This document shows, one piece after another, positions 30,021 to 58,735 of a stretch of DNA of 64,000 bases (positions within the stretch are counted from its first letter, which is position 1; every line of letters starts with the position of its first letter). Source of the DNA: Cyanidioschyzon merolae (taxonomy: Eukaryota); assembly GCA_000091205.1 (NCBI GenBank), contig AP006494.2; one strand, 5' to 3'. The position numbers and the translations under genes were made by a program. The notes below the pieces were generated by a model. That model made no database searches, was not told the DNA's origin, and saw nothing but the letters and a program-made list of their open reading frames with translations.

Positions 30021-33000
30021 GGTCCAGTGATTCCGCAGTGTACTGTAGCGCTCGCTCGTGGTACGTTAGGGGTCCCAGAATGGACTCTGAGACCATTGAT
30101 CAGAGAGTATCCAAGAGATTAATTGAGCACAGAGCGAGCGAGAGCGTTGTGAGCGTGCTGCAGCCCAAACGGCCTCTGATCAGTGCAGTCAGCGACGCTC
30201 TGTTTCGGACTGAAATGGAGCGCTGAACAGCTCGGCCAGTTCGTGGCTGTCGACTTGTTTTCCGAACTTTTTTTATCTAGATAGCTTGGAAATTCAATGG
30301 ATAGCCATGAGTACTTACGCTTTCAGAAGCACATGTCTCTACGCTTCTCGTTTCTGTACATAAAGCATACTAGAATCGGGTATTCTTCAAGGTTCCTCTC
30401 TATCCGTTTCGAGGCAAGTCTTGGTCGCCACATGTCGTAAAGCGGAATGGACTGCGAAACATACTCGATAGCGCTCATTGGCTTCTTGTTCAAGATGTCA
30501 TACCGAGAGTTTGCTGAACCTGTCACGTCATCCTATCGATTCCGTTAGAAAGAAAGAACCCCCCCTTTTCTGTCGCGATCGACGAAACGGCGTTGCACTG
30601 GAGCATCACACTTGTCACTGGAAATGCTCCCAGAAGCTACCGTATCTTCTGTTTGCATGACAAATTCTCCTGAACTAGGACTTGAGTGATCGCATCGATC
30701 GACCAAAGTGGCGCGTGTGGCTCTGTTTTGCACAAACGGAGCATCAATGGATCCAAAGTTCTCGACTTGTTCTCCGGTCTGCGGATTTCCTCCCGGTTCA
30801 TTTCTCATTATGAACAATTTGACGTTTTACAAACCCTCTGTCGAATCGCTGGACGTGCGCTTGCACCTTCATCAGCAGCTCGTGATCATAGCGTACGGTA
30901 CTAGGCACGACAATGAAGCATGGCATCTACGGGAGACTTGTGTGGCAGTCACTGGCATACCCTACGCAATGAAGCATGCGTTCACGCGCCTCTGGGCTGC
31001 GCTTGGAAACGGATATATGGTGGAGATACGCAAAGACCTGACTCCAGTCAAGGCTCGCTGCTACGGAGCGCGCTCCGTGACCGCATACAAAAACGGTGGA
31101 AATGGCACATGAAGCGTCGGTAGAGGCTTCAGCATCTGCATGCAATGCGTAGGAAACAGCGGGATGCAGCGAGCTCGGGACGCGAAGGACATTGTTGATA
31201 TCCTTCCACTGCCGCCAACTGACTTGGAGGGACAGCAGAGCCCGCCCACATTCATAGCCGGATCCACGAGAAGCAAAAGAAAACGTTCACGGGTACGGGC
31301 CGCGCAGTTTGCTGTTCATGATGCTGTGAAGCGACGATGTGTTTAGCGTGTAGGTCCAAGTTAGCGGACTCGTTCTATTTTATTCTTATACGGGTATAGG
31401 GTCCGTATCTTGGCTGTAGAAGCAGCTGCCCGTCTGCAGCAGAACGAAAGCGACTTGTCCACGCGCGCCCAAGACACACAACACGTCTGGAGTATCGTCG
31501 TTGCAGTCGCAAACGGTGTCGTGCCCTGTACACAGTATGCAGGGTGCGCATAAGACGAACTATGGACAAGTGGGACTCAGACCTGCGTGGTTTGCTTCTT
31601 CAGTAGAAAGTGTTGCAGGACTTGGGATCTGCCTGCGTCGAGATTGCAAACGTTTGCACAGAGGCGTCCGGTAGATGCCCTGTTCATACCCAGAAAGGGT
31701 GCCCCTGTACGAGTATACAATGCTTTCGAAAAAATATTTTTATGGACTTGTATGATCTGAGTGCCTCAGATCTAGTTCCGACAGCAGCATTGGAAAAGCT
31801 ACCGCATGTTCCACTGACGCTTGCGTCTTGCAAAGTGGCGTTTGCGGGCGACTCCAGGAGAAACCGCTGGAGCAGCCGCATTCCAGGAACGCCTATCCGT
31901 AACGCTACCGCGCCAGCTGCTGTACTCTCTGGTGAAGATGCAGCGCTGACTGCCTCGTGCAATTTCGAATGAGGGCGCTGCATCGAATACAGTGCCTCAG
32001 AAGCGTAGAAGGCTATGGAGAAGAAGAAGCCCCTGTTGCTTTCGACGTCGCCGTTGACACCATCCCGCACCGTTTTTCGTATACCCGAATTCCATTGGGC
32101 TCGCTCATTTGTTTTCGCAGTGATGGTCTCGGGGTACAGAGGACATCGGCCAGGCGCAGAGATATACGCGATGGCTGCTTGCGCTCCAGCAGCTCCCATG
32201 CTGTCTGGCATCCGAACAAGAACGCAAGGTAGCAGTCTTTGGCTCGCTCCAGCCGGATGGTTCCATCGTCATGGCGTTGGTGCTCCCGGTCCTCTGGTGC
32301 CTGCCGACGCTACCCAGCGTCAGTGTCCAACAACAATCCCGACTCTCTCGGTCCACAGTGAATGGTTGAGACGCTTCGGTGATTGCTGGCATGTCCAGGC
32401 AGCGCTTCAGCGGCGCGAATACACCGCGCTGTTTTCGAGAGCATTCTCGCTGCCCTCAGTTCACGATACTGAAGGCAGCATCACGCGGCATGGTACGCGG
32501 AAGGACTATACGCCTTTCACAGAGCAATCAGCGATGACGCTTCGGATAGGTCCAGGGTTCGCTTCTTGTGAACCTGGGCGGATGACCGCTCGGCGCTCTT
32601 CATTGGGTACTTTGCAACGGTGCGATGCGTTAGTCGCACCTGAGAATGCCACTCGGATCACGAGTGTGGACGCCAAACAGGCCGGGGTGCGGGAGCCCTC
32701 CACACCGGACAGCGTATGATCGAATGGGGTGCAGAGAACGCACCAGCATATGATTCCTGTTCGCGCACATACTGATCGAACTGAGCTTGCAATGATCACG
32801 TGCTATCCCACGGGGTACGGACAACGCCTTTATGCCCTTTTTGGAGACAGAAGCAATCGCGTTCGCATCATGCTCAGTCTACAGTGATGTCGTCTTCGGT
32901 GCCAGGAAACTCTTCCAAGCCGCTCTGATTCGAGATCGCCTGAGCCTGCGGATGTCCCAGTCCAGGCCTGTCGAGTCGTTCACGGTGATGGTCGAGGTCA

Positions 33001-36042: not shown

Positions 36043-37869
36043 CTAGTGCTCGATGCCTGCTGCCCCGGAAGCACGCGTTATCGAAGTTGCACATCGAAAC
36101 CCTGAAAGCATGAAATCCCGAAGCGCGAGAGCGCGTCCCCAGATACTATCTTCCATGTAGATGACGCGCATCAAGGCGTCGATCACGTCTACTGCTGCGT
36201 GATGTACGGGATACTGCAGCGGCTTTGGAATACGAGTGCGCAGCATCCAGAACCGATCCTGTGTAACACTTTTCATAAGACAGCAGGCGCGCAGCCCCTC
36301 AATACCAGCAAATCGATCGGAACCACTATCTTTCGTACCTCCGAAGGGCAGCGACTGGCATAAATAATTCACGCCAAAATCATTCTCATTCACCATTCCG
36401 ACGAGCAGCTTATTTCGAATCATCGCTGCACGCTTGCGATCAGCAGAGAAGACGCTGCTCCCGAGGCCGTACGCTGAACCGTTCACGATCCGAATTGCCT
36501 CCGCATCACCGTCGAAGGGGGTGATGATCATGACAGGACCGAACACTTCGTTTTGCATGATTCGGCTGTGTAGGGGCACGTCAGTCAAGAGCGTTGGCTC
36601 CCAGTACGAGCGCCCTGCGCGCTTGCCGCCACATAGGAGTCGCGCGCCGTCTTTCACTGCGTCGTTGATCAGTGACTCGAGTTCCCGCAGGGAGGCCTCG
36701 CCCATGGTCATTGCACCGAGATCGACGCCGATACGGAGTGACTGCACGCGCACCTGCATCTCGGCAACGAAACGCTCGTAGCTAGGGCGCTGCACCAGGA
36801 TGCGCTCGATCCCGACACAATTCTGGCCGCTGTTTTGAAAAACACCGCGCATCGCAATATCAAGTGCCTGCTCGAGATCCGCGTCATCACAGACAATAAA
36901 AGCGTCCTTACCGCCGAGCTCCAGGACACAGGGTTTCAGTTGCTCGGCTGCTGCCATGGCCACCTGACGCCCGACTCTCGTCGAACCCGTGAAGAATACT
37001 TTGGCAACACCCTTGTCGACAACGAGCGCCTCGCCGGCGCTGGCGCCGCCAGTGACCAACTGCACCAGTTCCGATGGATGCTTGCAAGCACGAAGCACAT
37101 GCCGCACAAGCTCGACATAGTAGACAGAGCACCAGGAGCTATACTCGCTGCTCTTAACGACGATTGCATTGCCCGCAAACAGGGCCGCTAATATCGGATT
37201 CATGAGGTTGTGGAATGGATAGTTCCACGGCGCAATCGCCGCAATGACACCCAGTGGCTCGAACTGCACCCAGGCGCGTTTATGCATGGTGAGCGGTCCG
37301 ACCGAGCGATACTCGGGAGCCAATGCCCGCTCGCCTTCGCGTAAAAGCCAGCGGATCTTCTCGAGCGTCGTGAGTAGCTCGCCCAGATATGCATCGACGA
37401 ACGTTTTCCCGGTTTCCAGCACGCTAGCCTGCAGGATAGACTCGCGATTCGCCAGAATTGCTTTGCGGAGCGCACGTAGAACTCGGCGCCGCTCAGCAAA
37501 CGACGTCTCTCTCCAGAGTTGCTGGGCATCGGACGCCACTTGAACGCGAGCGCGTACATCTGCCGCACTCTGGTCCAGTACCCATCCTAGCAGTCGACCA
37601 GTTGCTGCCGCCGCGCACCGGTGACAGCGATCGGCTTCGGTTTTCTTTCGACAACAGATGGGTTTTCCGGGTTGATCATCGGCGGTAACAGGAATAAGGA
37701 AAAGGCCGTCCTCCGTGAGGTCCGGCAGGCCCAGTGTCACGCACGGGACGTGCTCTCCGCGTTTGCAGAGCCATCTTGTCAGAATCAAACCAAGCAGCGC
37801 AGACACCAGTGCCGCGATAACGCTCCCACTCGTTAAGGGCAGAGCATGTATGGGTTGGTCAAGGTGCAT
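36043..37869 (-). CDS. Aldehyde dehydrogenase (ALDH superfamily), with N-terminal hydrophobic segment
   Basis: ALDH catalytic motifs FTGSTRVGRQV, LELGGKDAFIV, FQNSGQNCVGIERILV (catalytic Cys) and EVFGPVMII. ORF-track start at 37923 reads through from the adjacent mobile-element end; the first plausible Met is MHLDQPIH at 37869. Confidence 0.85.
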   Translation of the reverse strand: MHLDQPIHALPLTSGSVIAALVSALLGLILTRWLCKRGEHVPCVTLGLPDLTEDGLFLIPVTADDQPGKPICCRKKTEADRCHRCAAAATGRLLGWVLDQSAADVRARVQVASDAQQLWRETSFAERRRVLRALRKAILANRESILQASVLETGKTFVDAYLGELLTTLEKIRWLLREGERALAPEYRSVGPLTMHKRAWVQFEPLGVIAAIAPWNYPFHNLMNPILAALFAGNAIVVKSSEYSSWCSVYYVELVRHVLRACKHPSELVQLVTGGASAGEALVVDKGVAKVFFTGSTRVGRQVAMAAAEQLKPCVLELGGKDAFIVCDDADLEQALDIAMRGVFQNSGQNCVGIERILVQRPSYERFVAEMQVRVQSLRIGVDLGAMTMGEASLRELESLINDAVKDGARLLCGGKRAGRSYWEPTLLTDVPLHSRIMQNEVFGPVMIITPFDGDAEAIRIVNGSAYGLGSSVFSADRKRAAMIRNKLLVGMVNENDFGVNYLCQSLPFGGTKDSGSDRFAGIEGLRACCLMKSVTQDRFWMLRTRIPKPLQYPVHHAAVDVIDALMRVIYMEDSIWGRALALRDFMLSGFRCATSITRASGAAGIEH

Positions 37870-37882
37870 CACCTTGACACTA

Positions 37883-40312
37883 CAGTAGTGGCGAGAAGCC
37901 CGCCCTAGACAAGGCGCCGCCAACTAACGTGCAGACGCCTCGCAGTTTTTTTGGACCGGCCATCGACTACTGCTTCCACCTTTTTCTCATATGGTTCGAC
38001 TTTAAGTGATTGTCCAACAAAGTTCCCTCTTGTCAGCTCTGGAGGTCTCGTCTCCAGCACCGCACATTTCCTTATATTGATCGCGGCGATAAAGTCTCGA
38101 TTCAAAAACTCCATACGTTTCTTGCCATCAATGGTTGTGCTAACCAATACGAGTAGCCCTCGAACTTTCGCCATCCTTTCCATTTCCTCTTCCGTCAGCG
38201 GTCCGTGCTTTGCTATATCTTCAGGGCTCCTCTAGCGCCTTTCCATCTCGACCCTTTGAAGTGTACACCCCAGTTCATGGTGTGTAAACGTCGTTCGGAA
38301 CTCATCTACAGGTATCGTAACAAAACGCCTTGTGCACTCCTTGTGCACCCTCGTCGTTGGAGCTGGTGTACACCCTTTTTGTGTCTTCCAGCGCCCTGCT
38401 CCGTACGCTACTACGAGCCTTTGAATTTCATTCTCCTGCAAGGCGCTCAACTGATTGCGAAAATTCGCGAACGCGCGCTGCCTCCCACCGTATAGATTCA
38501 TTCGCAGACGAGCCCACCGGGGCTTGGTATACTCCTCCCACAGCGCATCCCGATGCGCAATGCGAAATTCCATGAACTCCCGAAAAGCTTCAAAGTCCGC
38601 TCCGCGGCTCGTCACCTCGCTCAAAGCTTCCAGGTGCTCTTTCACTCCTGCGTTCCACGTCTCGATTTTCTTCCTCGCATTCCTTATACCGGATTCTCGA
38701 TCGTATCACGCTCTCGAGAATCTCAACAGACGCATGTCTTTCTGACGCAAGTTACCGTCAGCGCCATCTTCCGCACGCTTGGGAGCAGCGATGGCTATGA
38801 TATTCGTATTCCCAGGGTCCGCGCCAACGACAAAGTCGTTATCCTGGACTTTCTGCGTCTCAATACCCGCCTCCTTCTTTTCTTCATGCTTCGTCGCGTC
38901 AACCGTAAAGTCGTTATCCTGTACTTCCTGCGTCGCAGCACCAGCCTCCTCCTTTTCTTCATCCTTCGTGACGGGTGCAGCCGGGGACGGAACTGGACGA
39001 TCTGTCTTCAAGCGCCGATAGTGTACACATATATATGGATACTCCATCGGTTTCGATCACACCAGTGAATACCTTTTGTTTGCTGACTTTGAGACGTTTG
39101 AAATTGAAGATGTTCTTCCAATACGTCTCCCGGTTTTCGCCGGTAAACTCCTCCCTGCTAACATTGAACTCTGGACTGATCTCCCTCATGATGCCACGAA
39201 GGATTCTGGAATCGATAGTCACGAAATGTGACGTGATGTTGCACATTGGAACCACGCTGATGCGCTTACCAATTAGGACAGCCTTCCGTCTCTCCCACTC
39301 TCCATTTGTCTCTTCACTCAGCATCACCTCTGCCTTGCACTCGAGTTCTCGGTCCAGAAACACAAAATAGCGCAGGATGAGGCGATAGTATCTTTCCTGA
39401 TCTTTTTCAGCTCTGATATCTTGTCTGTTGGATTCGCCAGCCCCAGTACAGCACGATGTTCTTGTATCACCGCACGGATTACAGAGGCTTCATTCGTGCT
39501 CCTGCGCGACTTCTTCTTGTCGACGGATTCGATCTCATGTTCACGCTTGCGATGCTTCGTGATGCCATTGATAATCGACCATATCCCCTTGCGAGAGATG
39601 CCAGGGTACAGCGCAGACACGGCGCGTATCATGAATCGTTCGAGATTCATTATCGAATGGTTCCTCAGGTTCGTGAGGTACTTCATCGCCCCATAGTCTT
39701 AAATACCCCAGTCACCCTTGATTCGAATACCCTCGAAGCTGTAAAAGGGATGTTTTTCGTGGAGGGCATCTACTAGCTCATTTTTCCTCCGCGCTTCCTC
39801 TGTACCAAGCATCAGGCGACTAAGAAACGTCTTGTCGCAAAACTCGTCTGGAATCTCGACCGTTTCCATGTGCGTCACGTCTTCGTACATCTCCCTCACC
39901 AAATGCATCAGTCCTAGCGACGCATTGACAATACTCTTCGAGTACGAGTCGACACGTGTTTCGATAGCGTCTCGCAACTTTTCCTTGTAGGGATCCTTGA
40001 TATGTCCAAGAAGAAAGGTTTGCACAACCATCTCGTCGGACAGTTGTCTTTCCCGCAGCCTTCGACGTAGGGCCTCCCCCTTTCGGTCCTTCTTCTCTTC
40101 CTTTTCTTCTGGACTCGGCACTGTTTTTTGTTTTTTTCTGGCAGCCGGCGACCCTGGGCCTCCAGGATCGTCAACTTGCATTTTCATGACTTTCCTTTTT
40201 TGTTTTTTGAAAAAGGACGCCCTTTGAACGCTTCTGTTATATACTGCTAATAATCAATTGAATATTTTTACTTGAGGTTTGAAACAAAATGAACTGAAAA
40301 ACTGTACTTGTC
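37883..40312 (-). mobile_element. Copy A of a ~2.4-kb repeated element encoding a TnpB/Fanzor-like RuvC nuclease (minus orientation); its 3' end lies 14 bp upstream of the ALDH start codon
   Basis: Near-identical to copy C (53069..55497) and to the 3' 1.3 kb of copy B. 5' boundary set where similarity to copy C ends, 3' boundary where similarity to copy B ends. Confidence 0.65.
37905..40187 (-). pseudogene. TnpB/Fanzor-like nuclease gene, copy A, disrupted (TAC>TAA nonsense near 39690; 1-nt deletion in an A-run near 39330 shared with copy C; in-frame TGA and TAG shared by all copies)
   Basis: Six successive ORF segments (39699..40187, 39324..39686, 38959..39363, 38706..39047, 38232..38645, 37905..38183) that concatenate into one TnpB-like protein: NLS-like N-term, FVVGADPGNTNIIAIAAP (RuvC-I), VVAYGAGRW...PVDEFRTTFTHHELGC, NRDFIAAINI (RuvC-III-like). 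Confidence 0.6.
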
Positions 40313-42391
40313 TATAAAGTTAAAGAAAATACAACTTTTACATTAGATCTACATGCTAGAGATCAGGATCACGTTCCCCTTCAACGGCGACATGTGCGTC
40401 GTGTCTCATGCCTGCCTGATCTCCCAGGCGTGCTCACCGAGCGCGATGCAAACTAGTCGCAAACTATTTATCAAAGAACAACTATCTTAAAGCCCCACAC
40501 ATTACGTCCGCCTAAGAGGTCTAGTTTTTCCGGAGAAGCTCTGAAAGTGGGTCAACGCGGGGTGTTCGAGCGACGGCGAAGGAAGCCCACGCCAGGGACC
40601 TTTACCGCAACGAACGGAGGGGCAGAGGCAGTAGCAGCAGAGAATGATGACGAGAGTTCTGAGTAGTCATCCGCCCCTCCGGAAACAACGCTGCAGGTTC
40701 GGGCGCAATTCCTGGATCAATCCTCGGACTCGGGCTCAGTATTACCTCCTACCATGGGTGCCAACCTCAACTTTGGAAACAATCTCGGCGGATGCTTTGG
40801 AAGACGGCTGGCAGTATGTTCACTGCCGAAGCTGGAACAAACGACTTGCCCGCCCATGTGTTTTGGGAGCGGATACGTAGCCGCTGAAAGGGTGGTTCAC
40901 AGAGTATCCCCAGTGGTTGAAGGTTGCTCCACGCGTTCGGCAGCGTAACGGTTGCATTCGAATCGACCTTGACTAGAGTACTTCTGATTCTACGCTAGCG
41001 CTGCGCCAAGCACTCAGTGAACGACTGGAATGCACGAGGCGCTTGTGGCATGTGCACTCACACACCCCGTGGAGGGTGCATCTAAATCGACGACGTATCT
41101 CTCGAGTACCGCAGCACTATTCCCATTCCCGTACGCGCTACGACTCGATAGGTTTCGCATCATGGAATATTTGCGGGATAGCCTCGGAATTGAACTACGA
41201 GATATCGAATTACCAGTACAGTAAAGAGGAACTGATACAAATCGAGGACTCTGCAATAGGAAAAGAGACCCAGCGGGATACGGAGAAGGAGACACAAAGG
41301 CCTCATGATCCACCTAGATGCAAAATAACCAGAGAAAGCAGCTCAGGAAAGAGCCCGAAGAAGACGAAGAAGACCAACAAGAAGAAACAGAAGAATAGAA
41401 AGAAGAGCTCCCGAACGAGCCCATCATGAGTGATCCCCTGAAAGAGCACCCCAGCGGGAACTCAAGAAAGCTGCCGCCAAACTCAATCACCTACTCACAG
41501 CGCTGAAGATCCGAAAAGCCATGCATGCAAGCCTTTAGACCAATTGGCACGCGAGTATGTATATGGGAATCAGAAGATTGCCAGAGAACTGGGACTGCTT
41601 GCACCAGAACGCAACAGTTGCAAACCTCGGTACCTGAAACGACGTACCAAAACTCGGAATGATGAATGCCACCGACTCTATAAGATCGTCAACCGCACCG
41701 CCATACGTGCCAACGCTGGAGACAAGGAAGCGAAAGCAGCGCTACCGGCGCTACAGGCGCAACATGAGGAAGCTATCAAAAGAAAGAAGAAACGTTCCAG
41801 AGAAGACAAACGAGAGGATCGAAACCGCAAAATCGCCTCCCTGACGGAATCTATGCTAGAGAGCACCAACGAAGATGAGACCTGACGCTCCATTCGATCG
41901 AGACTGGACGCACCAGAAAAGTGCTTGGGGCTCACACCAATCGTTCATAAGGAATCGCTGAGGACGGAGAGTGCCTCAGTGAATGAGACCGGGATAGACC
42001 ACGGGACAGAGCTGCATGAAGAAGCAACTGGGCACTGCCAAGACCCAGTCCATTGGTACCAATATGCTGCAGAACTACCGCGCCTCGAACATTACCAGCA
42101 CATGAATCGTTCCAGTGCAAACTACAGATATGATGCGAAAAATATCAATCGTGAAATGAGACAGTGTCGAGCGTCAGCGCACGCAGCACTGCCGCATAGA
42201 CCCACAGCGTCTAGCGACGAGCATCGCCCCAGTCTATCGCACGCGCCGCCGCGAAGATCCGGCACCGCAGGCCGCCGACGTGGGCGTGTCTGCGGCATCG
42301 GCTAGCTTCCAAGCGCCTTCAGCAAGCGCGGCCTCTGCTCCTGTTGCCGCTGCCGCTCGTGGTAAACGTACGTTACCGCACTTTGTGGGGC

Positions 42392-44002
42392 ATGTCGCTC
42401 GTTTTTGATGAGTATGGTAGACCGTTTATTATTTTCAAGGATCAAGACAGAAAGGTCCGGACGAAGGGCTTAGAGGCGATTCGGGCGAACGTTGCCGCAG
42501 CGACGGCCGTATCGCGCACCCTGCGAAGCTCGCTGGGTCCGAACGGCATGGATAAGCTGCTGGTTTCCGCCGACGGTGACGTTACCGTTACAAACGACGG
42601 TGCAACAATTCTGAAAGAAATGAACGTGAGCAATGAAGTTGCGAAACTTATGGTTGATCTGGCAAGCGCACAAGACGATGAGATCGGTGACGGCACCACT
42701 GGCGTCGTCGTGCTAGCAGGGGCCCTGCTCGAGCAAGCGCAACAGCTCCTGGACCGAGGCATGCACCCGTCAAGAATAAGTGACGGCTTCGATCGTGCGT
42801 GCGCGATTGCTGTGGATCATCTGGAAAAGATCGCCCAAGTTATGGAGCACACCAAGGCGGACACGTCACAACTGGTGCGGGCGGCAGTAACTGCGCTCAA
42901 CTCCAAGGTCGTCAAGCGTCATAGTGAGGCACTGGCACACGTGTGTGTGAAAGCGGTGCTTGCAGTTGCGGATCTCGAGCGACGTGACGTGAACTTGGAC
43001 TTGATCAAAATCGAAGGCAAAGTGGGCGGGCGCCTCGAGGACACGATTTTTGTCGACGGCATTGTCATCGACAAGGACATGTCGCACCCGCAGATGCCCA
43101 AACAAATAACCGATGCCAAAATCTGCATCCTGACGACTCCCTTTGAACCTCCCAAGCCGAAGACGAAGCACCGCCTCGAGATAAGCAGCGTCGAGCAGTA
43201 TCGCGAGCTGCAGCATGCTGAACAAGAATACTTCACGAACATGGTTAAACGAGTCAAAGACAGCGGTGCAAACCTGGTTATATGTCAGTGGGGTTTCGAC
43301 GATGAAGCCAATTCGCTCTTGTACCAGAATGGTATCTGTGCAGTTCGCTGGGTCGGCGGTGTCGAGATCGAGCTCATCGCGATGGCCACAGGCGGCCGCA
43401 TCATTCCGCGCTTCGAGGAGATCACTCCTGAGAAGCTCGGCCACGCTGCATCCGTCCGTGAGTTACATTTCGGGACGACACATGACAAGGTCATTGTCAT
43501 CGAAGGGTGCCGTAGCACCCGCGCAGTCACCATTTTGGTGCGCGGTGGCAATAAAATGGTGCTCGAGGAGACCAAGCGCAGCCTGCATGATGCGCTCTGC
43601 GTTGTACGCAACCTCATTCGGGATCAGCGGGTTGTGTGCGGCGGTGGTGCGTCTGAGATTGCTGGCGCTATCGCCGTAGCCGAGGCGGCGGATTGTTGCC
43701 TCGGACCCGAGCAGTACGCGATGCGAGCCTTTGCCGAGGCACTGGACTCGATCCCTATTGCCCTCGCTGAGAACAGCGGTCTGTCGCCCATTGAGACTCT
43801 GTCGAGTGTTCGCGCCCGTCAAATCGCTGAGCGCAAACCGTATTACGGCATCGATTGTCTCGGAATCGGCACGATGGATATGCGTGAGCAGAACGTTTAC
43901 GAAACACTGGAGAGCAAGAAGCAACAATTCCAGCTTGCGACGCAGCTATGTAAGATGATTTTGAAAATTGACGATATGCTCCAGCCGAATTCGTTGAGCT
44001 AA
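42392..44002 (+). CDS. CCT5: T-complex protein 1 (CCT/TRiC) subunit epsilon
   Basis: Collinear with CCT5 along full length: [94 protein letters not shown]. True start MSLVFDEYG at 42392 (ORF track begins 42344). Confidence 0.9.
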
Positions 44003-46704: not shown

Positions 46705-49085
46705 CTTCTTACCTGGGGGCATGAAGAAGTGTGTTCTATTTCAAAAATAAACAAGCCAATGGAAAGCTATCGACATGCAGGTCGGGGATCCTGGAGGGCC
46801 ATCTTCGCCGGGTTCGGCGAAGAAAACGGAAAACAATACCGATCCCAGGGGAACAAGAGAAGGCGAAGAAGCACAAGCAGGAAGCCAGGCGTCAAAAGCA
46901 ACTAGAAAGACGACAACACCGCGAGATTTGAGTGAAAGCTTGTCTTCTGAGACATACCAAGGATTCGTACAAGCAAAATTCACAAGAGGCTGTCAGAATC
47001 CTTGTCGCGTCGTACTCCAGGAGGGAACATTAGGCTTCTTTAGGACTCATGCATTTGCTGAAGGAGATGTACGACAACGTGCCGCATATGGAAACAGTCG
47101 ATATTCCAGAGGAATTTTTCAACAAGACCTTTATTCGTCACCTGACGCTTGGCACAGGGGAAGCGCCGAGGAGAAATGAACTGGTGCATGCCCTCCATGA
47201 AAATCATTCCGAGTACCGCTTCAACGGTGTTCGATGCAAGGGTGACTAGGGTATGTACACCTACGAAGCGATGAAGTACCTCACGAATCTGAAGAACAGT
47301 ACGACCATGAACCTCCAACGTTTCATGATACGCGCCATCTCTGCGCTGTACCAGGGCCTCTCTCGCAGAGGGATACGGGCCATCATCGACGGCATCACGA
47401 ACGATAGTACGAGTGAACAGGAGACCGAATTCGTCAAAGAGAAGACATCACGCAGGGGAAAGAATGAAGCTTTTGTGATCGGTGCAGCTATTCAAGAGCA
47501 TCGTGAAGTCTTGGGGCTTGTCAACCCAGCAGAAATGGTATCAGATGTGAAAAAAGATGAGGAATGATGCTCTCCCCTCAACCTGTGCTATTTCGTATTC
47601 CTGAACCGAGAACTCGAACGCAAGGCGGAGACGGAGCAAAGTGAAAAAAAAGAAGAGACAGACAGACAGACGGACAGACGGAAGGCTGTGCTGCTGGAGA
47701 AGCGCTTCAACGTCGATCCGTTGTCCAACATCAAGTCATATTTTGTGACAATCGACTCCAAAATCCTTTACGGCATCATGAGGAAGATCAGTCCAGAGTT
47801 CAATGTTAGCAGGGAGGAGTTTACCGGCGAAAACCGGGAGACGTATTGGAAGAACATCTTCAATTTCAAACGTCTCAAAGTCAGCAAACAAAAGGTATTC
47901 ACTGGTGTGATCGAAACCGATGGAGTATCCATATATATGTGTACACTATCGGCGCTTGAAGACAGATCGTCCAGTTCCGTCCCCGGCTGCACCCGTCACG
48001 AAGGATGAAGAAAAGGAGGAGGCTGGTGCTGCGACGCAGGAAGTACAGGATAACGACTTTACGGTTGACGCGACGAAGCATGAAGAAAACAAAGGAGCGG
48101 ATCCTGCGATGCAGAAAGTCCAGGATAACGACTTTGTCGTTGGCGCGGACCCTGGGAATACGAATATCATAGCCATCGCTGCTCCCAAGCGTGCGGAAGA
48201 TGGCGCTGACGGTAACTTGCGTCAGAAAGACATGCGTCTGTTGAGATTCTCGAGAGCGTGATACGATCGAGAATCCGGTATAATGAATGCGAGGAAGAAA
48301 ATCGAGACGTGGAACGCAGGAGTGAAAGAGCACCTGGAAGCTTTGAGCGAGGTGACGAGCCGCGGAGCGGACTTTGAAGCTTTTCGGGAGTTCATGGAAT
48401 TTCGCATTGCGCATCGGGATGCGCTGTGGGAGGAGCATACCAAGCCCCGGTGGGCTCGTCTGCGAATGAATCTATACGGTGGGAGGCAGCGCGCGTTCGC
48501 GAATTTTCGCAATCAGTTGAGCGCCTTGCAGGAGAATGAAATTCAGAGGCTCGTAGTAGCGTACGGAGCAGGGCGCTGGAAGACACAAAAAGGGTGTACA
48601 CCAGCTCCAACGACGAGGGTGCACAAGGAGTGCACAAGGCGTTTTGTTACGATACCTGTAGATGAGTTCCGAACGACGTTTACACACCATGAACTGGGGT
48701 GTACACTTCAAAGGGTCGAGATGGAAAGGCGCTAGAGGAGCCCTGAAGATATAGCAAAGCACGGACCGCAGACGGAAGAGGAAATGGAAAGGATGGCGAA
48801 AGTTCGAGGGCTACTCGCATTGGTTAGCACAACCATTGATGGCAAGAAACGTATGGAGTTTTTGAATCGAGACTTTATCGCCGCGATCAATATAAGGAAA
48901 TGTGCGGTGCTGGAGACGAGACCTCCAGAGCTGACAAGAGGGAACTTTGTTGGACAATCACTTAAAGTCGAACCATATGAGAAAAAGGTGGAAGCAGTAG
49001 TCGATGGCCGGTCCAAAAAAACTGCGAGGCGTCTGCACGTTAGTTGGCGACGCCTTGTATAGGGCGGGCTTCTCGCCACTACTAT
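46705..49085 (+). mobile_element. Copy B of the TnpB/Fanzor-like element (plus orientation); 5' ~1 kb divergent, 3' ~1.3 kb near-identical to copies A/C
   Basis: Homology to copies A/C from the leader (caaaaataaacaag...atgcaggtcggggatcctgg) through the shared 3' tail ...gggcttctcgccactact; lacks the ~60-bp TATA-containing leader segment present in A/C. Confidence 0.6.
46775..49062 (+). pseudogene. TnpB/Fanzor-like nuclease gene, copy B, disrupted (AGA>TGA nonsense at ~47565; extra stop between segments 47049..47249 and 47253..47567; shares the conserved in-frame TGA and TAG)
   Basis: ORF segments 46775..47179, 47049..47249, 47253..47567, 47688..48008, 47920..48261, 48283..48735, 48784..49062 collinear with copy A/C segments. 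Copy B is in-frame where A/C carry the 1-nt deletion. Confidence 0.6.
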
Positions 49086-49157
49086 ACACCGCTGCCGTCG
49101 TTCGACTTAGAACGGCTTTTGGTATTGGCGGTGGTACAGCGGCCTTGCCTCGTGTTT

Positions 49158-50084
49158 ATGGCAACGAGCGTTTCGGAAAGCGAGTTGCAACTGCTTCCGC
49201 ACTGGCTTTCGTGTATCCATGCGAAGCGGTCAACCTGGACGTGTTCCCAAGACTATGCGCGGTTCGTTCGGCTCTTGCGGGATATCTCCTTGGAGCTCTA
49301 TGTGGCGCGCAACCAGCCCAACGTGCTCGTTCAACTCGCACGTTACGGTTCAGCGTGCACACGGGTTGTGAACGATCTTATCACGGTCTGGAGTGTTCCG
49401 CTTCTACACGAGAGCGTTTCCAGGGCGGTGATTCGGTTTCTAGTGGTTTGTCAGACCGGCAGCGGACCAGAGCAAGTCAAGAGGCGGGCTCTGGCCTGGG
49501 CGCGACACCTGCTGCGACTCGCTGTCTCTCCAGCGATCAACGCAACCTTTATCGATGAGGGCTTAGGTTCAGCTCGAGTTGTGGATGAACTTTGCACTGT
49601 TATCGGGGCCATGGGTTGCCAGGCGCGCATACCAGCTGAACTTGGCGTTCTGATTCCATCGCTCATTCAGGGTGCATGCTGTGCAGACCTTGTTGCTGCT
49701 CTCGTGCCGACGATTGCGGCAATGCTCGAGTCGCAAGCGACCAGTCCCGCATGGCGTCATGCCGTTCGCTGCGCATTCACCTGGGAAGATGCGGAAACGA
49801 AGTACTGTGCTTTTCGCGACGGGTTGTCGGCGACTCTGCAAAATATGCTCCTCGCGGCAGACGCGCAGCTCTTGTGCCAGTGCCTCCAGTCCCCGGAGGC
49901 ACTACTCAAAACACCGCTGGATCATCTCAGCGAGCGATTCGATCACATTCGCCTCTTCTTGCGTTTACAACATGGAGCGGATCCGGATACCAAGGCATCT
50001 GCTGACGACGTCAATACAGTCTCGACGCAGAACCAGAGCGGACCGGATCTCGCAACGACGCCTCGAGCAGGAACGATGACCTGA
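49158..50084 (+). CDS. Hypothetical protein of unknown function (start reassigned to first ATG downstream of the element end)
   Basis: ORF-track ORF 49044..50084 starts with a TTG inside the mobile-element tail; coding-like composition continues for ~310 aa after ATG 49158. No recognisable domain. Confidence 0.3.
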   Translation: MATSVSESELQLLPHWLSCIHAKRSTWTCSQDYARFVRLLRDISLELYVARNQPNVLVQLARYGSACTRVVNDLITVWSVPLLHESVSRAVIRFLVVCQTGSGPEQVKRRALAWARHLLRLAVSPAINATFIDEGLGSARVVDELCTVIGAMGCQARIPAELGVLIPSLIQGACCADLVAALVPTIAAMLESQATSPAWRHAVRCAFTWEDAETKYCAFRDGLSATLQNMLLAADAQLLCQCLQSPEALLKTPLDHLSERFDHIRLFLRLQHGADPDTKASADDVNTVSTQNQSGPDLATTPRAGTMT

Positions 50085-51026: not shown

Positions 51027-52379
51027 ATCAGTATCCAGTCGGCACAGTGACTGTGCCTCTTCACCAGTGACGGGCTCTTGACGAAAACCGAAGCACCAGG
51101 TACAGTGCTCGACCGCGCCGCTGCAGCACGCAGCGGGCCAACACTGTCAGAGAGTTTCGACGTTGACGTTCGCGCCGAGGCTCGCCAGCGCGCATGATGC
51201 ACGCTCGTCATCTGTTCATTCGTGTTTTGTATGTTTATTCATGAACATATGAAGGCAGTATCTGGTCCAGACGCGCATGGCCTACCCATGTCCGATCGAG
51301 GTCGCGAAACCTTGTTCAATGAATGAGATCGAGTGGACGAAGCCTTTAAAGCCCCAGATGCGTCGATGCTGACAGCTAGCTGGGCAGAGGCCGTCGTTCA
51401 CCTACAGATGCTTCTCCGCTCGATAAGCGAGCGATCAGTCCTCCCGTCAGACTCAGAAAATAGAGGCAGCCACTGTTGGGGTACAACGCGAACCGTGAGC
51501 TCCGTTCCGCAACGCTGGATGCACTGCCGCCGCTGACGCCATGCGGCAGGAGAACGGCTCTTCGTTGCGTTTAGAGGCGGCGCCTGAAGAGTTCGCGGTA
51601 TCTGCGTAGCGCACCGATCAAGCAGGGATCCCTTGCGTAGATCCACAGAATACAGATGTTTGATGGTGTCGGAACGGTGGATCTTAGCCAGTGCCGCCCG
51701 GAGATGTGAAGAAGGTACCTGCTCGGAGAGCGCTTCCACGATGTACTGCAGTCAGATGGATGCCTGGAATGCAAGGTTCGGAAAAATGATCGGTTTTATG
51801 AACGCAACAAAGACTCGCCAATATGAAAAATGCAATTGACTACGAATTTTCCGGTGATTTCGTGAACGCGTCCGTGTGGAATACATCCTATTCATGCTCG
51901 AGTTTGGGATGCAAACAGCAGCGGTTGGTGCATATCCAGAACGTCCACCAAGGGAATCCATCTGATCTTCCTCACTTACAGGATATACATACGGCCAGCG
52001 ATGAGGTCCATCGGATTCATACGTCTGGCTGCTTTCATCTATGCGGTGTAGACACGCTGGACAATGAAGCTTCTACTCCAAGGTGTCGCTTATGAGCCCT
52101 AGAGCCACTGCAACGAAGCTGCTCTTGTCCGGACTTGCAACCCAGCGCAACCCAATGGTCAGCGTCCACTAGAATCCGACACAGCAGCCCGTTACCCGCA
52201 GACATCAGAATGGAAGCGTCTCGCTGCAGGACGATGGGCATGCGCCGCAGTCTTGCCAATGAGCCGGATCAATCGCCGCATCCGTAGAACAAAGAACAGA
52301 GACCAACTACCAACTAGCAACGAGATAACGATTTCTTTCGCCATCTACGATAAACGTTAAAATGAGGAAAAGTTTCCTC

Positions 52380-52860
52380 GTTGGCGAAAGTTTACCTTAC
52401 AGGCGGAAGGTCCCGCGAGCTGAACGAGTGTGCCCGGCGAGTGCTTCATGCGACTCTACAGAGGCAGATGCCAAAGTAAGATATGAGCAGCAGCTCATCG
52501 TAACGCAATGCTTTCTGGGAATAGGAGCAGGACGCTGCGTCTGGGCGTCGCCCTTGTCGCAGCGGACTCCTCGTATATCGCTTCGCAGTGCCGCAGACAG
52601 TACGTCTGTCTGCGCAGCTCGCAGGCTCCCAGAATGATCATGAATCCAGACCCGGTATCGGGTGAAGCATTCCTCGAGCCGAGGCCCTCAGTGGTATAGC
52701 AAAGCCGTTCGAGCTCCATGAACTATCTGCTCCAGCGGTTCAAGCGCAAAGGTGGATGATTAGGGTAGGTACGAGGCACACACGATAGGACGTATGAAAC
52801 GACCAAAATATCCGAGAAGAAGTATAGGTAATGTAAATTGGAGGTAGGTGCTTCATCACG
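52380..52860 (+). repeat. Dispersed repeat family R1 (copy 1); related copies at 60100..60420 (+) and 58340..58640 (-, partial)
   Basis: Shared blocks gtttaccttacaggcggaaggtcccgcg..., gggtgaagca..cctcgagccga.gccct, ctatctgctccagcggtt.aag...ggatgattagg.taggtac.aggcacacacgataggacgtatgaaacgacca.aatatccgagaa...gtataggtaatgtaa read directly in both places. Confidence 0.5.
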
Positions 52861-53068
52861 GACGCTTTCCAGAAAGCCGTTATCCTTTCCGAATTCTAGG
52901 ATCCATGGTCAATGGAAACGTCTTGTCAATAAAAAAATCGCGCTCAATGGGCGCACCCCGGAGATCGGGCAGTCAACTGACGCGATGCGCGTGCCGTTGT
53001 TGAAGGGAAACTCAATTGGGATCAGTAACGTGTTGTTCAGCTGTGAACGTCGGATATCGGTCCAGGCC

Positions 53069-55497
53069 ATAGCAAAGTACAGTCTTTCAGTTCGTTTTTG
53101 TTTCAAACTTCAAACAAGTCCAGTCAAGTGTTTTTTTGCAGTATATAACAGCAGGGTTCAAAGAGCGTTCTTGTTCAAAAAAAAAGAAAGCTATCAAAAT
53201 GCAAGTCCACGATGCTGGAGGCTCAGTGTCGCCGGCTGCTAGAAGAAAACAAAAAACAGTGCCGAGTCCAGAAGAAAATGAAGAGAAGGAGGACTGAAAG
53301 GGGAGGCTCTACGTCGAAGGCGGCAAGAAAGACAACTGTACGACGAGATGGTGGTGAAAGCTGGTCTTCCTAAACATATCAAGAATCCGTACAGGGAAAA
53401 GTTGCGAGACGCTATCGAAACACGTGTCGACTCGTACTCGAAGAGTATTGTCAATGCGTCGCTAGGACTGATGCATTTGGTGAGGGAGATGTACGAAGAC
53501 GTGACGCACATGGAAACGGTCGAGATTCCAGACGAGTTTTTCGACAAGACGTTTCTTAGTCGCCTGATGCTTGGTACAGAGGAAGCGCGGAGGGAAAATG
53601 AGCTAGTAGATGCCCTCCACGAAAAACATCCCTTTTACAGCTTCGAGGGTATTCGAATCAAGGGTGACTGGGGTATTTACAGCTATGGGGCGATGAAGTA
53701 CCTCACGAACCTGAGGAACCATTCGATAATGAATCTCGAACGATTCATGATACGCGCCGTGTCTGCGCTGTACCCTGGCATCTCTCGCAAGGGGATATGG
53801 TCGATTATCAATGGCATCACGAAGCATCGCAAGCGTGAACATGAGATCGAATCCGTCGACAAGAAGAAGTCGCGCAGGAGCACGAATGAAGCCTCTGTAA
53901 TCCGTGCGGTTATACAAGAACATCGTGCTGTACTGGGGCTGGCGAATCCAACAGACATGATATCAGAGCTGAAAAAGATCAGGAAAGATACTATCGCCTC
54001 ATCCTGCGCTATTTTGTGTTTCTGGACCGAGAACTCGAGTGCAAGGCAGAGGTGATGCTGAGTGAAGAGACAAATGGAGAGTGGGAGAGACGGAAGGCTG
54101 TCCTAATTGGTAAGCGCATCAGCGTGGTTCCAATGTGCAACATCACGTCACATTTCGTGACTATCGATTCCAGAATCCTTCGTGGCATCATGAGGGAGAT
54201 CAGTCCAGAGTTCAATGTTAGCAGGGAGGAGTTTACCGGCGAAAATCGGGAGACGTATTGGAAGAACATCTTCAATTTCAAACGTCTCAAAGTCAGCAAA
54301 CAAAAGGTATTCACTGGTGTGATCGAAACCGATGGAGTATCCATATATATGTGTACACTATCGGCGCTTGAAGACAGATCGTCCAGTTCCGTCCCCGGCT
54401 GCACCCGTCACGAAGGATGAAGAAAAGGAGGAGGCTGGTGCTGCGACGCAGGAAGTACAGGATAACGACTTTACGGTTGACGCGACGAAGCATGAAGAAA
54501 AGAAGGAGGCGGGTATTGAGACGCAGAAAGTCCAGGATAACGACTTTGTCGTTGGCGCGGACCCTGGGAATACGAATATCATAGCCATCGCTGCTCCCAA
54601 GCGTGCGGAAGATGGCGCTGACGGTAACTTGCGTCAGAAAGACATGCGTCTGTTGAGATTCTCGAGAGCGTGATACGATCGAGAATCCGGTATAATGAGT
54701 GCGAGGAAGAAAATCGAGACGTGGAACGCAGGAGTGAAAGAGCACCTGGAAGCTTTGAGCGAGGTGACGAGCCGCGGAGCGGACTTTGAAGCTTTTCGAA
54801 AATTCATGAAAGTTCGCATTGCGCATTGGGATGCGCTGTGGGAGGAGTATACCAAGCCCCGGTGGGCTCGTCTGCGAATGAACCTATACGGTGGGAGGCA
54901 GCGCGCGTTCGCGAATTTTCGCAATCAGTTGAGCGCCTTGCAGGAGAATGAAATTCAGAGGCTCGTAGTAGCGTACGGAGCAGGGCGCTGGAAGACACAA
55001 AAAGGGTGTATACCAGCTCCAACGACGAGGGTGCACAAGGAGTGCACAAGGCGTTTTGTTACGATACCTGTAGATGAGTTCCGAACGACGTTTACACACC
55101 ATGAACTGGGGTGTACACTTCAAAGGGTCGAGATGGAAAGGCGCTAGAGGAGCCCTGAAGATATAGCAAAGTACAGACCGCTGACGGAAGAGGAAATGGA
55201 AAGGATGGCGAAAGTTCGAGGGCTACTCGTATTGGTTAGCACAAGCATTGATGGCAAGAAACGTATGGAGTTTTTGAATCGAGACTTTATCGCCGCGATC
55301 AATATAAGGAAATGTGCGGTGCTGGAGACGAGACCTCCAGAGCTGACAAGAGGGAACTTTGTTGGACAATCACTTAAAGTCGAACCATATGAGAAAAAGG
55401 TGGAAGCAGTAGTCGATGGCCGGTCCAAAAAACTGCGAGGCGTTTGGACAACAGATGGAGACGTTTCGCCTGGGGCGCGTTCGCCGCCTCTACTGTA
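53069..55497 (+). mobile_element. Copy C of the TnpB/Fanzor-like element (plus orientation), with divergent 3' terminal ~90 bp
   Basis: Collinear with copy A over ~2.4 kb including the TATA-containing leader gcagtatataacag. Diverges from A/B after ctgcgaggcgt (55441) but keeps a related terminal ...cgccgcctctactgta. Confidence 0.65.
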
Positions 55498-55507
55498 CCG
55501 CTGGTGA
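53198..55507 (+). pseudogene. TnpB/Fanzor-like nuclease gene, copy C, disrupted (early stop after residue ~30 plus frameshift near 53290; 1-nt A-run deletion ~54000 shared with copy A; conserved in-frame TGA 54671 and TAG 55145)
   Basis: ORF segments 53348..54055, 54016..54420, 54332..54673, 54695..55147, 55196..55507. RuvC-I GADPGNTN at ~54554-54575; Cys/His Y/FTT segment 55043-55144; NRDFIAAINI at 55277-55306. Confidence 0.6.
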
Positions 55508-55632
55508 CACCAACGTTTTTCTTTTGAAAGACGTTCGTTGTCAGCGGTGTGCTCGCTGCGCTTTCGCAGCCGATTTTGTGACCCGAACGGCTTTATCGCC
55601 ACTGGGGTGCGGCACCGTGCCCGGTAGCGCTT

Positions 55633-57965: not shown

Positions 57966-58735
57966 CGTTGCCTGCTGGTTTTTTCAGATGACAAAACGTT
58001 TCCATTGACCATGGATCCCTGAAGTCGGAATGGATAATGGCTTTCGTGAAAGCGTCCATGATGAAGCGCCTTCCCTCAAGTTCCGTTACCCGTACTTCCT
58101 CTCGTCTGCACTGGTCGTTTCGTATGTTCTATCGTACGCCGAGTGCCTGTTTTGAGCACCCACCGTAGCGCTCACACCACTGAAGCAGATGCTGCACAGA
58201 GACAGAACGGCCTTGTCATGCCACTGAGAACGTCGCCTCGACGCGTAGTTCTCCGACACGGAATCGGGATTCATCTTCAATCTGGGAGACAGCAAGCTCC
58301 ACAGTCAGACCTAATGCCTGTGGCAGCGCGAAACGATAGCTAGGAGACAACCGCAACCATGACGACACCTGGATGCATTCTAACCAATTCTAGTCTCAGA
58401 ATAAACAGCGTTGCGGGCGAGTTGCTCAGGTCGCGCCACTGCACGCGCCACTGGCAGGAGCATGAAGCACGATCCTGGGAGACTCGTCTGGCCCGCGGGA
58501 CCTTCCGCCTATAAGGTAAACGTTCGACAGTACGGAAAGCTTTTCTCCCTTGTAACATGTATCTTAGGGGGGAAATAAATATTGATATACTTGCCGGTGA
58601 GTCGTGAGTCTCGTACCTTTTTTCGATATCGCGCATTCAACACGCGCACCTGGGAGGTCAGGCCGTCGCGAGACACGACACGCATGTCGCCGCTGGGGAG
58701 AAACCCGATCGTGACCAATCGTTTACTGTTTGTTC

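Follow-up and report, generated by a model that had tools for sequence, protein, structure and literature searches.

A degenerate, 3'-truncated Fanzor1 element next to the start codon of an aldehyde dehydrogenase gene in Cyanidioschyzon merolae

Introduction

CMe-1A, a Fanzor1 family of Cyanidioschyzon merolae, was described as about 150 copies of about 3 kb that had no terminal inverted repeats (TIRs), whose target-site duplications (TSDs) and class were undetermined, and whose 5' 635 bp were in common with the element TE-N2_CMe (Bao & Jurka 2013, PMC3627910). In Fanzor systems, the 3' flank of the omega-RNA serves as the guide (PMC10432273). Here, we analyzed a Fanzor1-type copy, copy A, whose 3' end stands directly in front of an aldehyde dehydrogenase (ALDH) gene in a stretch of C. 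merolae DNA of 64,000 nucleotides (nt) (contig AP006494.2, assembly GCA_000091205.1); this whole stretch is referred to as the window. The best explanation of the junction, to which as a whole we give a probability of roughly 60%, is that it joins the host gene to a degenerate, 3'-truncated CMe-1A copy. The feature is real but ordinary: a degenerate member of a published transposon family that was inserted at a gene start, together with an artefact of open reading frame (ORF) calling. What matters more widely is the CMe-1A family: its ends and its mode of transposition had stayed undefined since 2013, and it now has a defined 3' terminus that lies unusually near co-oriented gene starts. In the searchable literature, we found no report of the family 3' terminus, of its loss in copy A, or of the position of Fanzor elements relative to genes.

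Copy A has in common with CMe-1A the genome, the Fanzor1 protein, the length of about 3 kb, the lack of TIRs, and the presence of many diverged copies next to some intact relatives. In addition, copy C of the window has a 5' part (a unit of about 607 nt) in common with a nonautonomous element of about 0.6 kb, a likeness that was judged by size and arrangement. The 5' part of copy A (40448-41721) differs from that of CMe-1A, and copy A has no terminal hairpin. The CMe-1A paper describes neither that hairpin, nor where copies lie relative to host genes, nor the junction analyzed here (PMC3627910).

The solved Fanzor1 systems SpuFz1 (8gkh), PpFz1 (9cf0), and GtFz1 (9cer) (PMC10432273; PMC11423790) share with the window copies profile-level homology over the WED/RuvC region, the D, E, and RD motifs, and a conserved, structured noncoding 3' end that overlaps or follows the end of the ORF. 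The window copies differ from them because no similarity is found with single sequences, the C4 zinc-finger cysteines are absent in Cyanidioschyzon-type members, and the window copies are pseudogenes. Helitron and IS200/IS605-type ends are similar in having no TIRs, no obvious TSDs, and 3' hairpins (PMC3627910), but the elements described here have neither a CTRR terminus nor a RepHel or TnpA gene.

Results and discussion

The junction between copy A and ALDH

The features at the junction were as follows.

36043-37869, minus strand: coding sequence, including the stop codon, of an ALDH22-type aldehyde dehydrogenase of 608 amino acids (aa), 100% identical to BAM80857.1 ("betaine aldehyde dehydrogenase")
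37867-37869, minus strand: ALDH start codon, at which BAM80857.1 begins and which forms the loop of the palindrome
37858-37878, both strands: perfect inverted repeat with 9-bp arms and a 3-nt loop, read on the minus strand as GTCAAGGTG-ATG-CACCTTGAC
37870-37880, minus strand: 11-nt spacer GTGTCAAGGTG from the last conserved base of copy A to the ATG; the 5' arm of the palindrome makes up its final 9 nt
37870-37923, minus strand: spurious, TTG-initiated extension of 18 codons that yields an ORF of 626 aa
37881-37963, minus strand: structured 3' tail of copy A, with hairpins H1 (37909-37943) and H2 (37890-37905), then ...CTACTGTA
37881-40447, minus strand: core of copy A (2567 bp), a CMe-1A-type Fanzor1 transposon without the terminal hairpin
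37905-40187, minus strand: Fanzor1 pseudogene in which the RuvC D/E/D residues are kept, with three stop codons and two frameshifts
40448-41721, minus strand: probable 5' part of the same mobile unit as copy A, 87-88% identical to two loci (L012 and L014) with different 3' neighbors

Read directly on the minus strand, the junction consisted of ...CTACTGTA (37888-37881), GT (37880-37879), GTCAAGGTG (37878-37870), ATG (37869-37867), and CACCTTGAC (37866-37858); the wider context was ...GGGCGGGCTTCTCGCCACTACTGTA, followed by GT GTCAAGGTG ATG CACCTTGAC CAACCC.... The mutual similarity of copies A, B, and C of the window stopped at 37881, which was the final family-conserved base of copy A. An original prediction, made from the letters of the window, had correctly placed the first ALDH methionine (MHLDQPIH) at 37869, and the closeness of the element to this codon was real. 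However, the prediction had put the 3' boundary at about 37883 and the distance at 14 bp, and these values became 37881 and 11 nt. Similarly, the predicted 9-bp perfect inverted repeat does overlap the ALDH start; its span was 37858-37878 rather than 37857-37877, and the arms were separated by a loop of 3 nt (cat on the plus strand, which is the ATG) rather than by 2 nt (ca). The 3' arm of the palindrome corresponded to ALDH codons 2 to 4 (His-Leu-Asp).

The 626-aa ORF, which the prediction had called a read-through artefact, began at TTG 37923. This was the first ATG, GTG, or TTG past the upstream stop; therefore, by the rule of the ORF list, the frame had no ATG upstream of 37869 as far back as the preceding stop. 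A start at MHLDQPIH was used in the reference annotation (BAM80857.1, 608 aa) and in most metagenome gene calls, and two public metagenome calls of 626 aa (P0180 and P0185) repeated the TTG extension. The longer ORF is a mechanical TTG-extension artefact of ORF calling. By itself, the junction is a routine annotation point that fixes the ALDH start at 37869 and exposes the 626-aa calls as artefacts.

The ALDH protein matched Pfam Aldedh (PF00171; E = 3e-125), and its best named matches were the ALDH22A1 proteins of the red algae Gracilariopsis, Galdieria, and Porphyridium (54-55% identity). Residues 16-31 form a hydrophobic stretch (SVIAALVSALLGLILT), a putative N-terminal anchor, that matches hydrophobic N termini in the P0002 and L005 homologues. 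The short hydrophobic N terminus in homologues of two related species fits an ALDH start at 37869. Codons 1 to 4 (ATGCACCTTGAC) were identical to those of L005 (ATGCGCCTTATC) at 9 of 12 positions and look native.

Identity of the copy A element

Pfam and PDB searches with single Fanzor fragments or with the stitched Fanzor protein gave no match. A database search with the stitched protein identified apparently intact relatives of 692-752 aa (P0121 was 72% identical), as well as distant relatives that carried the TnpB hallmark PF07282 (P0153, 2.4e-8; P0154, 1.2e-3). A profile of six sequences (alignment A4) matched the Fanzor1 structures PpFz1 (9cf0; 3.7e-17), SpuFz1 (8gkh; 2.6e-12), and GtFz1 (9cer; 9.8e-9). 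The RuvC motifs were GADPGNTNI, VDEFRTT, and NRDFIAAINI, and D459, E631, and R699-D700 were invariant in the alignment. The C4 zinc finger (PF07282; CxxC pairs) between the E and RD motifs was absent in the window copies, P0121, P0151, and P0152. Copy A was therefore found to have two of the Fanzor1 hallmarks, significant similarity and the RuvC D...E...RD pattern, and to lack the zinc finger and an intact ORF.

The TAA stop of the pseudogene occurred only in copy A, and the TGA and TAG stops were common to copies A, B, and C; one frameshift was common to all three copies and the other was found in A and C only. Intact relatives read CGA and CAG at the TGA and TAG codons. Introns or recoding were ruled out as causes of the broken ORF by these codons and by the fact that the frameshifts lay in otherwise collinear sequence. 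Given the genome, protein type, size, and arrangement, we assign copy A to the published CMe-1A family as a pseudogenized Fanzor1 transposon, and we infer that it does not work as an RNA-guided nuclease locus.

The 40448-41721 segment was common to two loci with different downstream genes and is therefore probably part of the mobile unit. The element is at least 2.57 kb long, which is the length of the core (2567 bp), and probably at least 3.84 kb; for comparison, copy C with the 607-nt 5' unit and hairpin amounted to 3.2 kb. When the two terminal segments of 100 nt were compared, their longest inverted match was 6 nt, equal to the shuffle mean (6.3). We also considered a Helitron reading, based on a host A followed by TC at 40447 and on the 3' hairpin. 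It was ruled out. Sequence upstream of 40447 was common to subsets of copies, so the A-TC there is an internal module boundary and not a true end; in addition, no CTRR followed the hairpin in 52 copies, and no RepHel ORF was found.

Two further observations concern this element. Between the copy A core and the CCT5 gene (40448-42391), there were two conserved-looking plus-strand ORFs (41043-41429 and 41544-41885), and 41001-42000 had a strong AT skew (0.38); no Pfam match was found for the ORFs of 40448-42300. Within the Fanzor ORF, a 75-nt tandem duplication (38820-38969; also 47998-48147 and 54410-54559) encoded an acidic EEKKEAG..QDNDF unit. P0121 and similar relatives held more of these units, indicating that the copy number varies within the family.

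The 3' end of the family

A protein-profile scan of metagenome contigs yielded 80 loci, from which 52 independent 3' ends were extracted. In 48 to 49 of the 52 ends, ...CGCCACTACTGTA was followed by a conserved module of about 45-50 nt that formed a terminal hairpin, with the consensus CACNGNNGGCG-NCGTTCGACTTTCGAANGGCG-TT(T)G...GGTG and a second variant that had a AACGTTTTTCTTTTGAAAGGCGTT center. The 52 nt after CTGTA had a mean minimum free energy of -18.1 kcal/mol, compared to -12.4 kcal/mol for control 52-mers, and values of -15 or lower were found in 71% of the ends and in 26% of the controls. Sequence divergence among related copies began only past the terminal hairpin. Of 48 matches to the module, 46 were preceded by the tail, and the other two were cut by contig ends. 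Since the module was never found without the tail, it belongs to the element, and the idea that it was an independent, dispersed target of about 45 nt was ruled out.

The 3' order in intact relatives was two small hairpins, CTACTGTA, and the terminal hairpin of about 45-50 nt. Copies B and C carried the terminal hairpin, but copy A lacked the entire module, even the initial CAC. Thus, 37881 is the end of a truncated copy and not the family terminus. Judged from these comparisons, it is neither the end of an intact element nor a normal guide-donating flank. The original prediction had suggested that the flank beyond this end would donate the guide, and that suggestion falls with the missing hairpin and the broken ORF. 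We present the family's 3' terminus (CTACTGTA plus the hairpin of about 45-50 nt) and its loss in copy A as new.

With regard to the tail itself, 73% of the cells of hairpins H1-H3 were paired, compared to 40-62% in slid controls, and covariation was not above that of shuffles. RNAalifold gave no consensus structure for the tail, and a search of Rfam gave no match. An omega-RNA-like function of the tail is plausible. On inspection of the family 3' ends, the variable outer stem of the hairpin showed no relation to the flank.

At four metagenome loci (L013:865-1059, L025:363-557, L029:868-1062, and L059:738-932), the last ~75 nt of the tail and the terminal hairpin were present without a Fanzor ORF. 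These ORF-less units preceded the core of a full copy by 736-761 nt, measured to its start, so these composites have the terminal structure at both ends, as a direct repeat.

The insertion site in relatives and environmental samples

The other copies and host genes that are needed for this comparison were as follows.

42392-44002, plus strand: CCT5 chaperonin gene (BAM80858.1), the divergent neighbor of ALDH
46727-49133, plus strand: element copy B, with its terminal hairpin at 49087-49133
49158-50084, plus strand: CYME_CML279C (BAM80860.1), which begins 24 nt past the copy B hairpin
52937-55549, plus strand: element copy C, with its terminal hairpin at 55498-55549
55711-57546, plus strand: CYME_CML282C (bZIP; BAM80862.1), which begins 161 nt past the copy C hairpin

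Further window proteins were letter-identical to those of C. merolae 10D, namely, proteasome alpha-2 (BAM80856.1), an HSF-like protein (BAM80859.1), and a TRAPP subunit (BAM80861.1). The related species represented by L005, whose ALDH was 68-76% identical, kept the order CML282C, TRAPP, CML279C, HSF, CCT5, ALDH. Its divergent spacers measured 1386, 670, and 507 nt, compared to 4684, 3525, and 4522 nt in 10D, where they held copies C, B, and A, respectively. No Fanzor-like sequence was found in L005. The ALDH-CCT5 spacer of 10D without the copy A core was 1944 nt, and without 40448-41721 as well it was about 670 nt, which is near the length of the empty spacer of L005. The L005 intergenic DNA was too diverged to align, so this comparison is one of synteny and spacer lengths.

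These results indicated that copy A entered the promoter region between the divergent genes CCT5 and ALDH, right at the edge nearest ALDH and in the orientation of ALDH. The predicted insertion upstream of ALDH agreed with this picture, given a related species in which CCT5 and ALDH lie 507 bp apart without the element. The comparison of orthologous loci that had been proposed along with the prediction thus supplied an element-free spacer in a related species but not an empty site in the same species: no same-species contig without the element was found, and all of them broke within it.

The junction was identical in 11 contigs from 11 environmental samples that were about 99.5% identical to 10D, and the spacer GTGTCAAGGTG was invariant across them. 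All 11 contigs broke 50-290 nt inside the element. The junction is fixed in the sampled populations. As a separate observation, the environmental assemblies (L001-L004, L007-L010, and L092-L104) broke systematically inside Fanzor copies, showing that repeats fragment every metagenome assembly here.

Position of the family relative to host genes

All three copies of the window lay in divergent promoter regions with the 3' end against the start codon of one gene. The 3'-side gaps to the annotated ATG were 11 nt for copy A (from its last base) and 24 and 161 nt for copies B and C (from the end of the hairpin), and the 5'-side gaps were 670, 1094, and 1304 nt for A, B, and C, respectively; the combined p value for uniform placement was 0.0024. 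When the nearest downstream ORF (150 aa or longer) was determined at 49 distinct sites in relatives, it was co-oriented at 38 sites and opposite at 10. When ORFs of at least 300 aa were used, 27 were co-oriented and 10 were opposite. The median distance from CTGTA to the ATG was about 140 nt, and 15 of the 38 co-oriented sites were within 100 nt. Closeness to the ATG was a stronger signal than the orientation bias. That the element may drive ALDH, as the prediction had suggested, becomes plausible in view of this positional pattern.

According to Pfam, the downstream genes were ordinary host genes that encoded diverse, unrelated proteins: cytochrome b5, polyprenyl synthase, AMP deaminase, an HCO3 transporter, an exonuclease III-type nuclease, an RsmB-type methyltransferase, Vta1, and ChaN. 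In the case of the cytochrome b5 gene (Pfam E = 1e-27; L053:3746-3790), the ATG directly followed the last base of the hairpin (..GGCGTTGGTG, then ATGGCGATGGG), and this site is the closest parallel to the ALDH junction. We put forward as new the start-codon-proximal, co-oriented placement of the CMe-1A family, of which the ALDH junction is the extreme case.

Transposons that settle in promoter or 5' untranslated region (5'UTR) DNA and read outward include bacterial insertion sequences with outward promoters, the yeast elements Tf1 and Ty, and solo long terminal repeats that act as promoters. The CMe-1A copies are like them in being co-oriented with the gene, in lying within tens of nucleotides of the start codon, and in displacing the native upstream DNA. 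They differ in being DNA elements whose outward promoter activity is putative.

It is possible, although we propose it tentatively, that CMe-1A is placed nonrandomly, with a structured 3' end that is delivered to, or retained only at, sites a few to about 150 nt upstream of co-oriented starts. Such an end may act as a portable promoter or 5' leader, or the placement may reflect strand-specific integration into single-stranded or open DNA at transcription starts. If the end is a portable promoter or leader, then ALDH would be driven from within a dead Fanzor element. Because C. merolae is genetically tractable, the use of a Fanzor end as a host upstream region, or integration that targets transcription-start DNA, is directly testable, and either outcome would bear on the role of Fanzor elements in eukaryotic genomes.

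The favored account of the junction and points against it

In the account that we favor, the element inserted into the CCT5-ALDH divergent promoter region, and the native spacer of about 500-670 bp would now lie beyond the element, at a distance of at least 3.8 kb. Transcription of ALDH would begin within the element itself, most likely in the last ~95 nt, a stretch free of upstream ATGs. Such a start is probable because the native spacer is at least 3.8 kb distant and a long leader would be burdened by every ATG that the tail has upstream of 37963. Specifically, the last ATG ahead of the ALDH ATG was at 37963 on the minus strand, and it opened a 27-codon upstream ORF that was out of frame with ALDH. 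This ORF ended at a TAG (37882-37880) that used the last two bases of the element, 10 nt ahead of the ALDH ATG. In the literature, we found no relevant data on C. merolae transcription starts. That copies B and C and many sites in relatives show the same arrangement would mean that the family 3' end tolerates or supplies a promoter or leader function, or that integration prefers start-proximal DNA.

The palindrome would then be a by-product of the loss of the terminal hairpin: a snap-back fill-in during end joining would have copied ALDH codons 2 to 4 (6-9 nt) in inverted form, and the palindrome would not be a designed signal. Templated (snap-back) insertions at end-joining junctions are made by polymerase-theta-type repair. 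The copy A junction resembles them in having a short, perfect inverted copy of the DNA that flanks a deletion junction, with a 3-nt loop in between, and it differs from them in that the case is drawn from one junction only. We consider fold-back fill-in the most likely origin, ahead of a hairpin remnant, chance, or native 5'UTR sequence, because the arms are perfect, the loop is tight, and the palindrome coincides with the deletion; sequence alone cannot separate these origins.

Several points weigh against this account. The fold-back origin rests on one junction, and chance has a probability of roughly 0.5-3%. The 11-nt spacer resembles the last hairpin bases in some copies (..GTGTCAGGGGTG in L029 and ..TTTCAAGGGGTG in L025), which makes an internal deletion an alternative. 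The orientation bias weakens when the null is realistic. Any element in a divergent spacer has a co-oriented gene ahead of it, so a null of 50% is too low, and against an assumed 65%, p was about 0.025. A transcription start of ALDH within the element, and promoter activity of the tail, are purely what we infer from the letters. The 12 codon differences among the ALDH variants that share the insertion are too few to show continued selection on ALDH after the insertion. Finally, the lengths given for the element are lower bounds at its 5' end.

Alternative explanations

The alternative that survived best, which we nevertheless consider clearly less probable than the favored account, is that the palindrome is native ALDH sequence or a coincidence; GTCAAGGTG would be a remnant of the original 5'UTR, and the element or a later deletion ended beside it. 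Consistent with this alternative, when arms of 9 bp or more and loops of up to 8 nt were counted, the window contained 10 perfect inverted repeats, compared to 2.35 +/- 1.4 in first-order Markov simulations (an enrichment of about 4-fold); examples lay at 7428, 8377, 12493, 15413, 23086, 28725, 46802, 49879, and 52592. In addition, codons 2 to 4 are native, and the feature was singled out post hoc. However, the chance that one such repeat is centered within 15 nt of a chosen point was about 0.005, or about 0.03 over all element ends in the window. The palindrome also coincided with the only copy of 52 that lacked even the start of the terminal hairpin (CAC...), and L005 had no counterpart of the upstream arm ahead of its ATG. 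Among 684 control intervals of 26 nt downstream of related copies, none had a 9-bp stem.

Less probable, and in our view unlikely, is an internal deletion of the terminal hairpin in copy A, in which case the 11 nt would represent the 3' end of that hairpin and the element would stop exactly at the ATG, as it does at L053, where the ATG directly follows ..GTTGGTG. The spacer GTGTCAAGGTG matched the L029 and L025 endings given above and ..GTCAGCGGTG of copy C at 10 of 11 positions with one or two gaps. Nevertheless, a likeness of 11 nt, in the stretch of the module that varies most, is weak evidence; copy B, the closest to the copy A tail, ends in ..GGTATTGGCGGTG, a poor match; and perfect complementarity to ALDH codons 2 to 4 would still need chance. 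A related possibility, that the palindrome is a terminal hairpin with its center deleted, was ruled out, as such a derivative would begin CAC... right after CTGTA, like that of L040, and copy A does not. Junction palindromes were also ruled out as a signature of the family. The palindrome was unique to copy A among 57 related 3' junctions, and the best short-loop stem averaged 3.46 nt in these junctions and 3.45 nt in controls, with no stem as long as 9 nt.

We think it improbable that the insertion silenced ALDH and that the open frame survives only because the event was recent. The ALDH variants that share the insertion differed at only 12 codons, of which 7 were nonsynonymous and 5 were synonymous, and pN/pS was about 1 in the 10D lineage alone, as silencing would predict. 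In contrast, pN/pS was about 0.1-0.2 among environmental alleles, and the 608 codons were intact in all 12 sequenced alleles. Moreover, copies B and C sit likewise before annotated genes, and relatives sit before AMP deaminase and GGPP synthase genes; such placement before housekeeping genes is evidently compatible with gene function.

Slightly more doubtful still is a function for the palindrome hairpin, either in translation control, by holding the AUG in its loop, or as a transcript-end or processing signal that substitutes for the lost terminal hairpin. As RNA, the palindrome had a predicted energy of -12.7 to -13.2 kcal/mol (z = -2.5 against shuffles), it occupies the exact position of the family's terminal hairpin, and it was invariant in 11 assemblies. 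However, these assemblies differ by only about 0.5% overall, so the invariance is uninformative; there was no covariation to test, and the related species lacks the palindrome. A stem of -13 kcal/mol is also a weak barrier to eukaryotic scanning.

The least credible reading, that copy A is a working TnpB-like unit whose omega-RNA is guided by the 5' end of ALDH, draws on the use of the omega-RNA 3' flank as the guide in Fanzor systems (PMC10432273) and on intact Fanzor proteins of the family elsewhere that could act in trans, but since copy A has neither the terminal hairpin that precedes the flank in 48 to 49 of 52 copies nor a working ORF (three stop codons and two frameshifts), and since its tail had no Rfam match and no covariation above shuffles, it is not to be read as a guide donor.

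Other copies and repeats in the window

The window also contained the following related features.

52331-52936, plus strand: repeat of about 607 nt directly 5' of the copy C core, with an inverted copy at 57979-58580; its size fits TE-N2_CMe (PMC3627910)
58649-59082, plus strand: fragment D, which contains only the 5' part of the core

The copies were mosaic. Copy A was 98% identical to copy C over 37947-40082 and 97% identical to copy B over 37881-39315, a stretch of 1435 nt that takes in the final 70 nt of copy A, where copy C was only 73% identical. The 5' part of copy B was only 78% identical to A and C. Together with the common nonsense codons and frameshift, this mosaicism points to a copy that was already dead when it underwent gene conversion or local duplication.

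The inverted copy of the ~607-nt repeat lay about 70 nt 5' of fragment D, and shorter pieces of the repeat were found at 52658-52848 versus 60194-60384 and at 16303-16418 versus 60108-60223. Elsewhere in the window, 2417-2610 was a long, imperfect GAT/GAA/GAC-rich repeat that is probably an acidic, low-complexity coding stretch, and two diverged pairs of inverted repeats were unrelated to the Fanzor element (9327-9878 versus 14057-14611, 64%; 4187-4322 versus 30523-30659, 69%).

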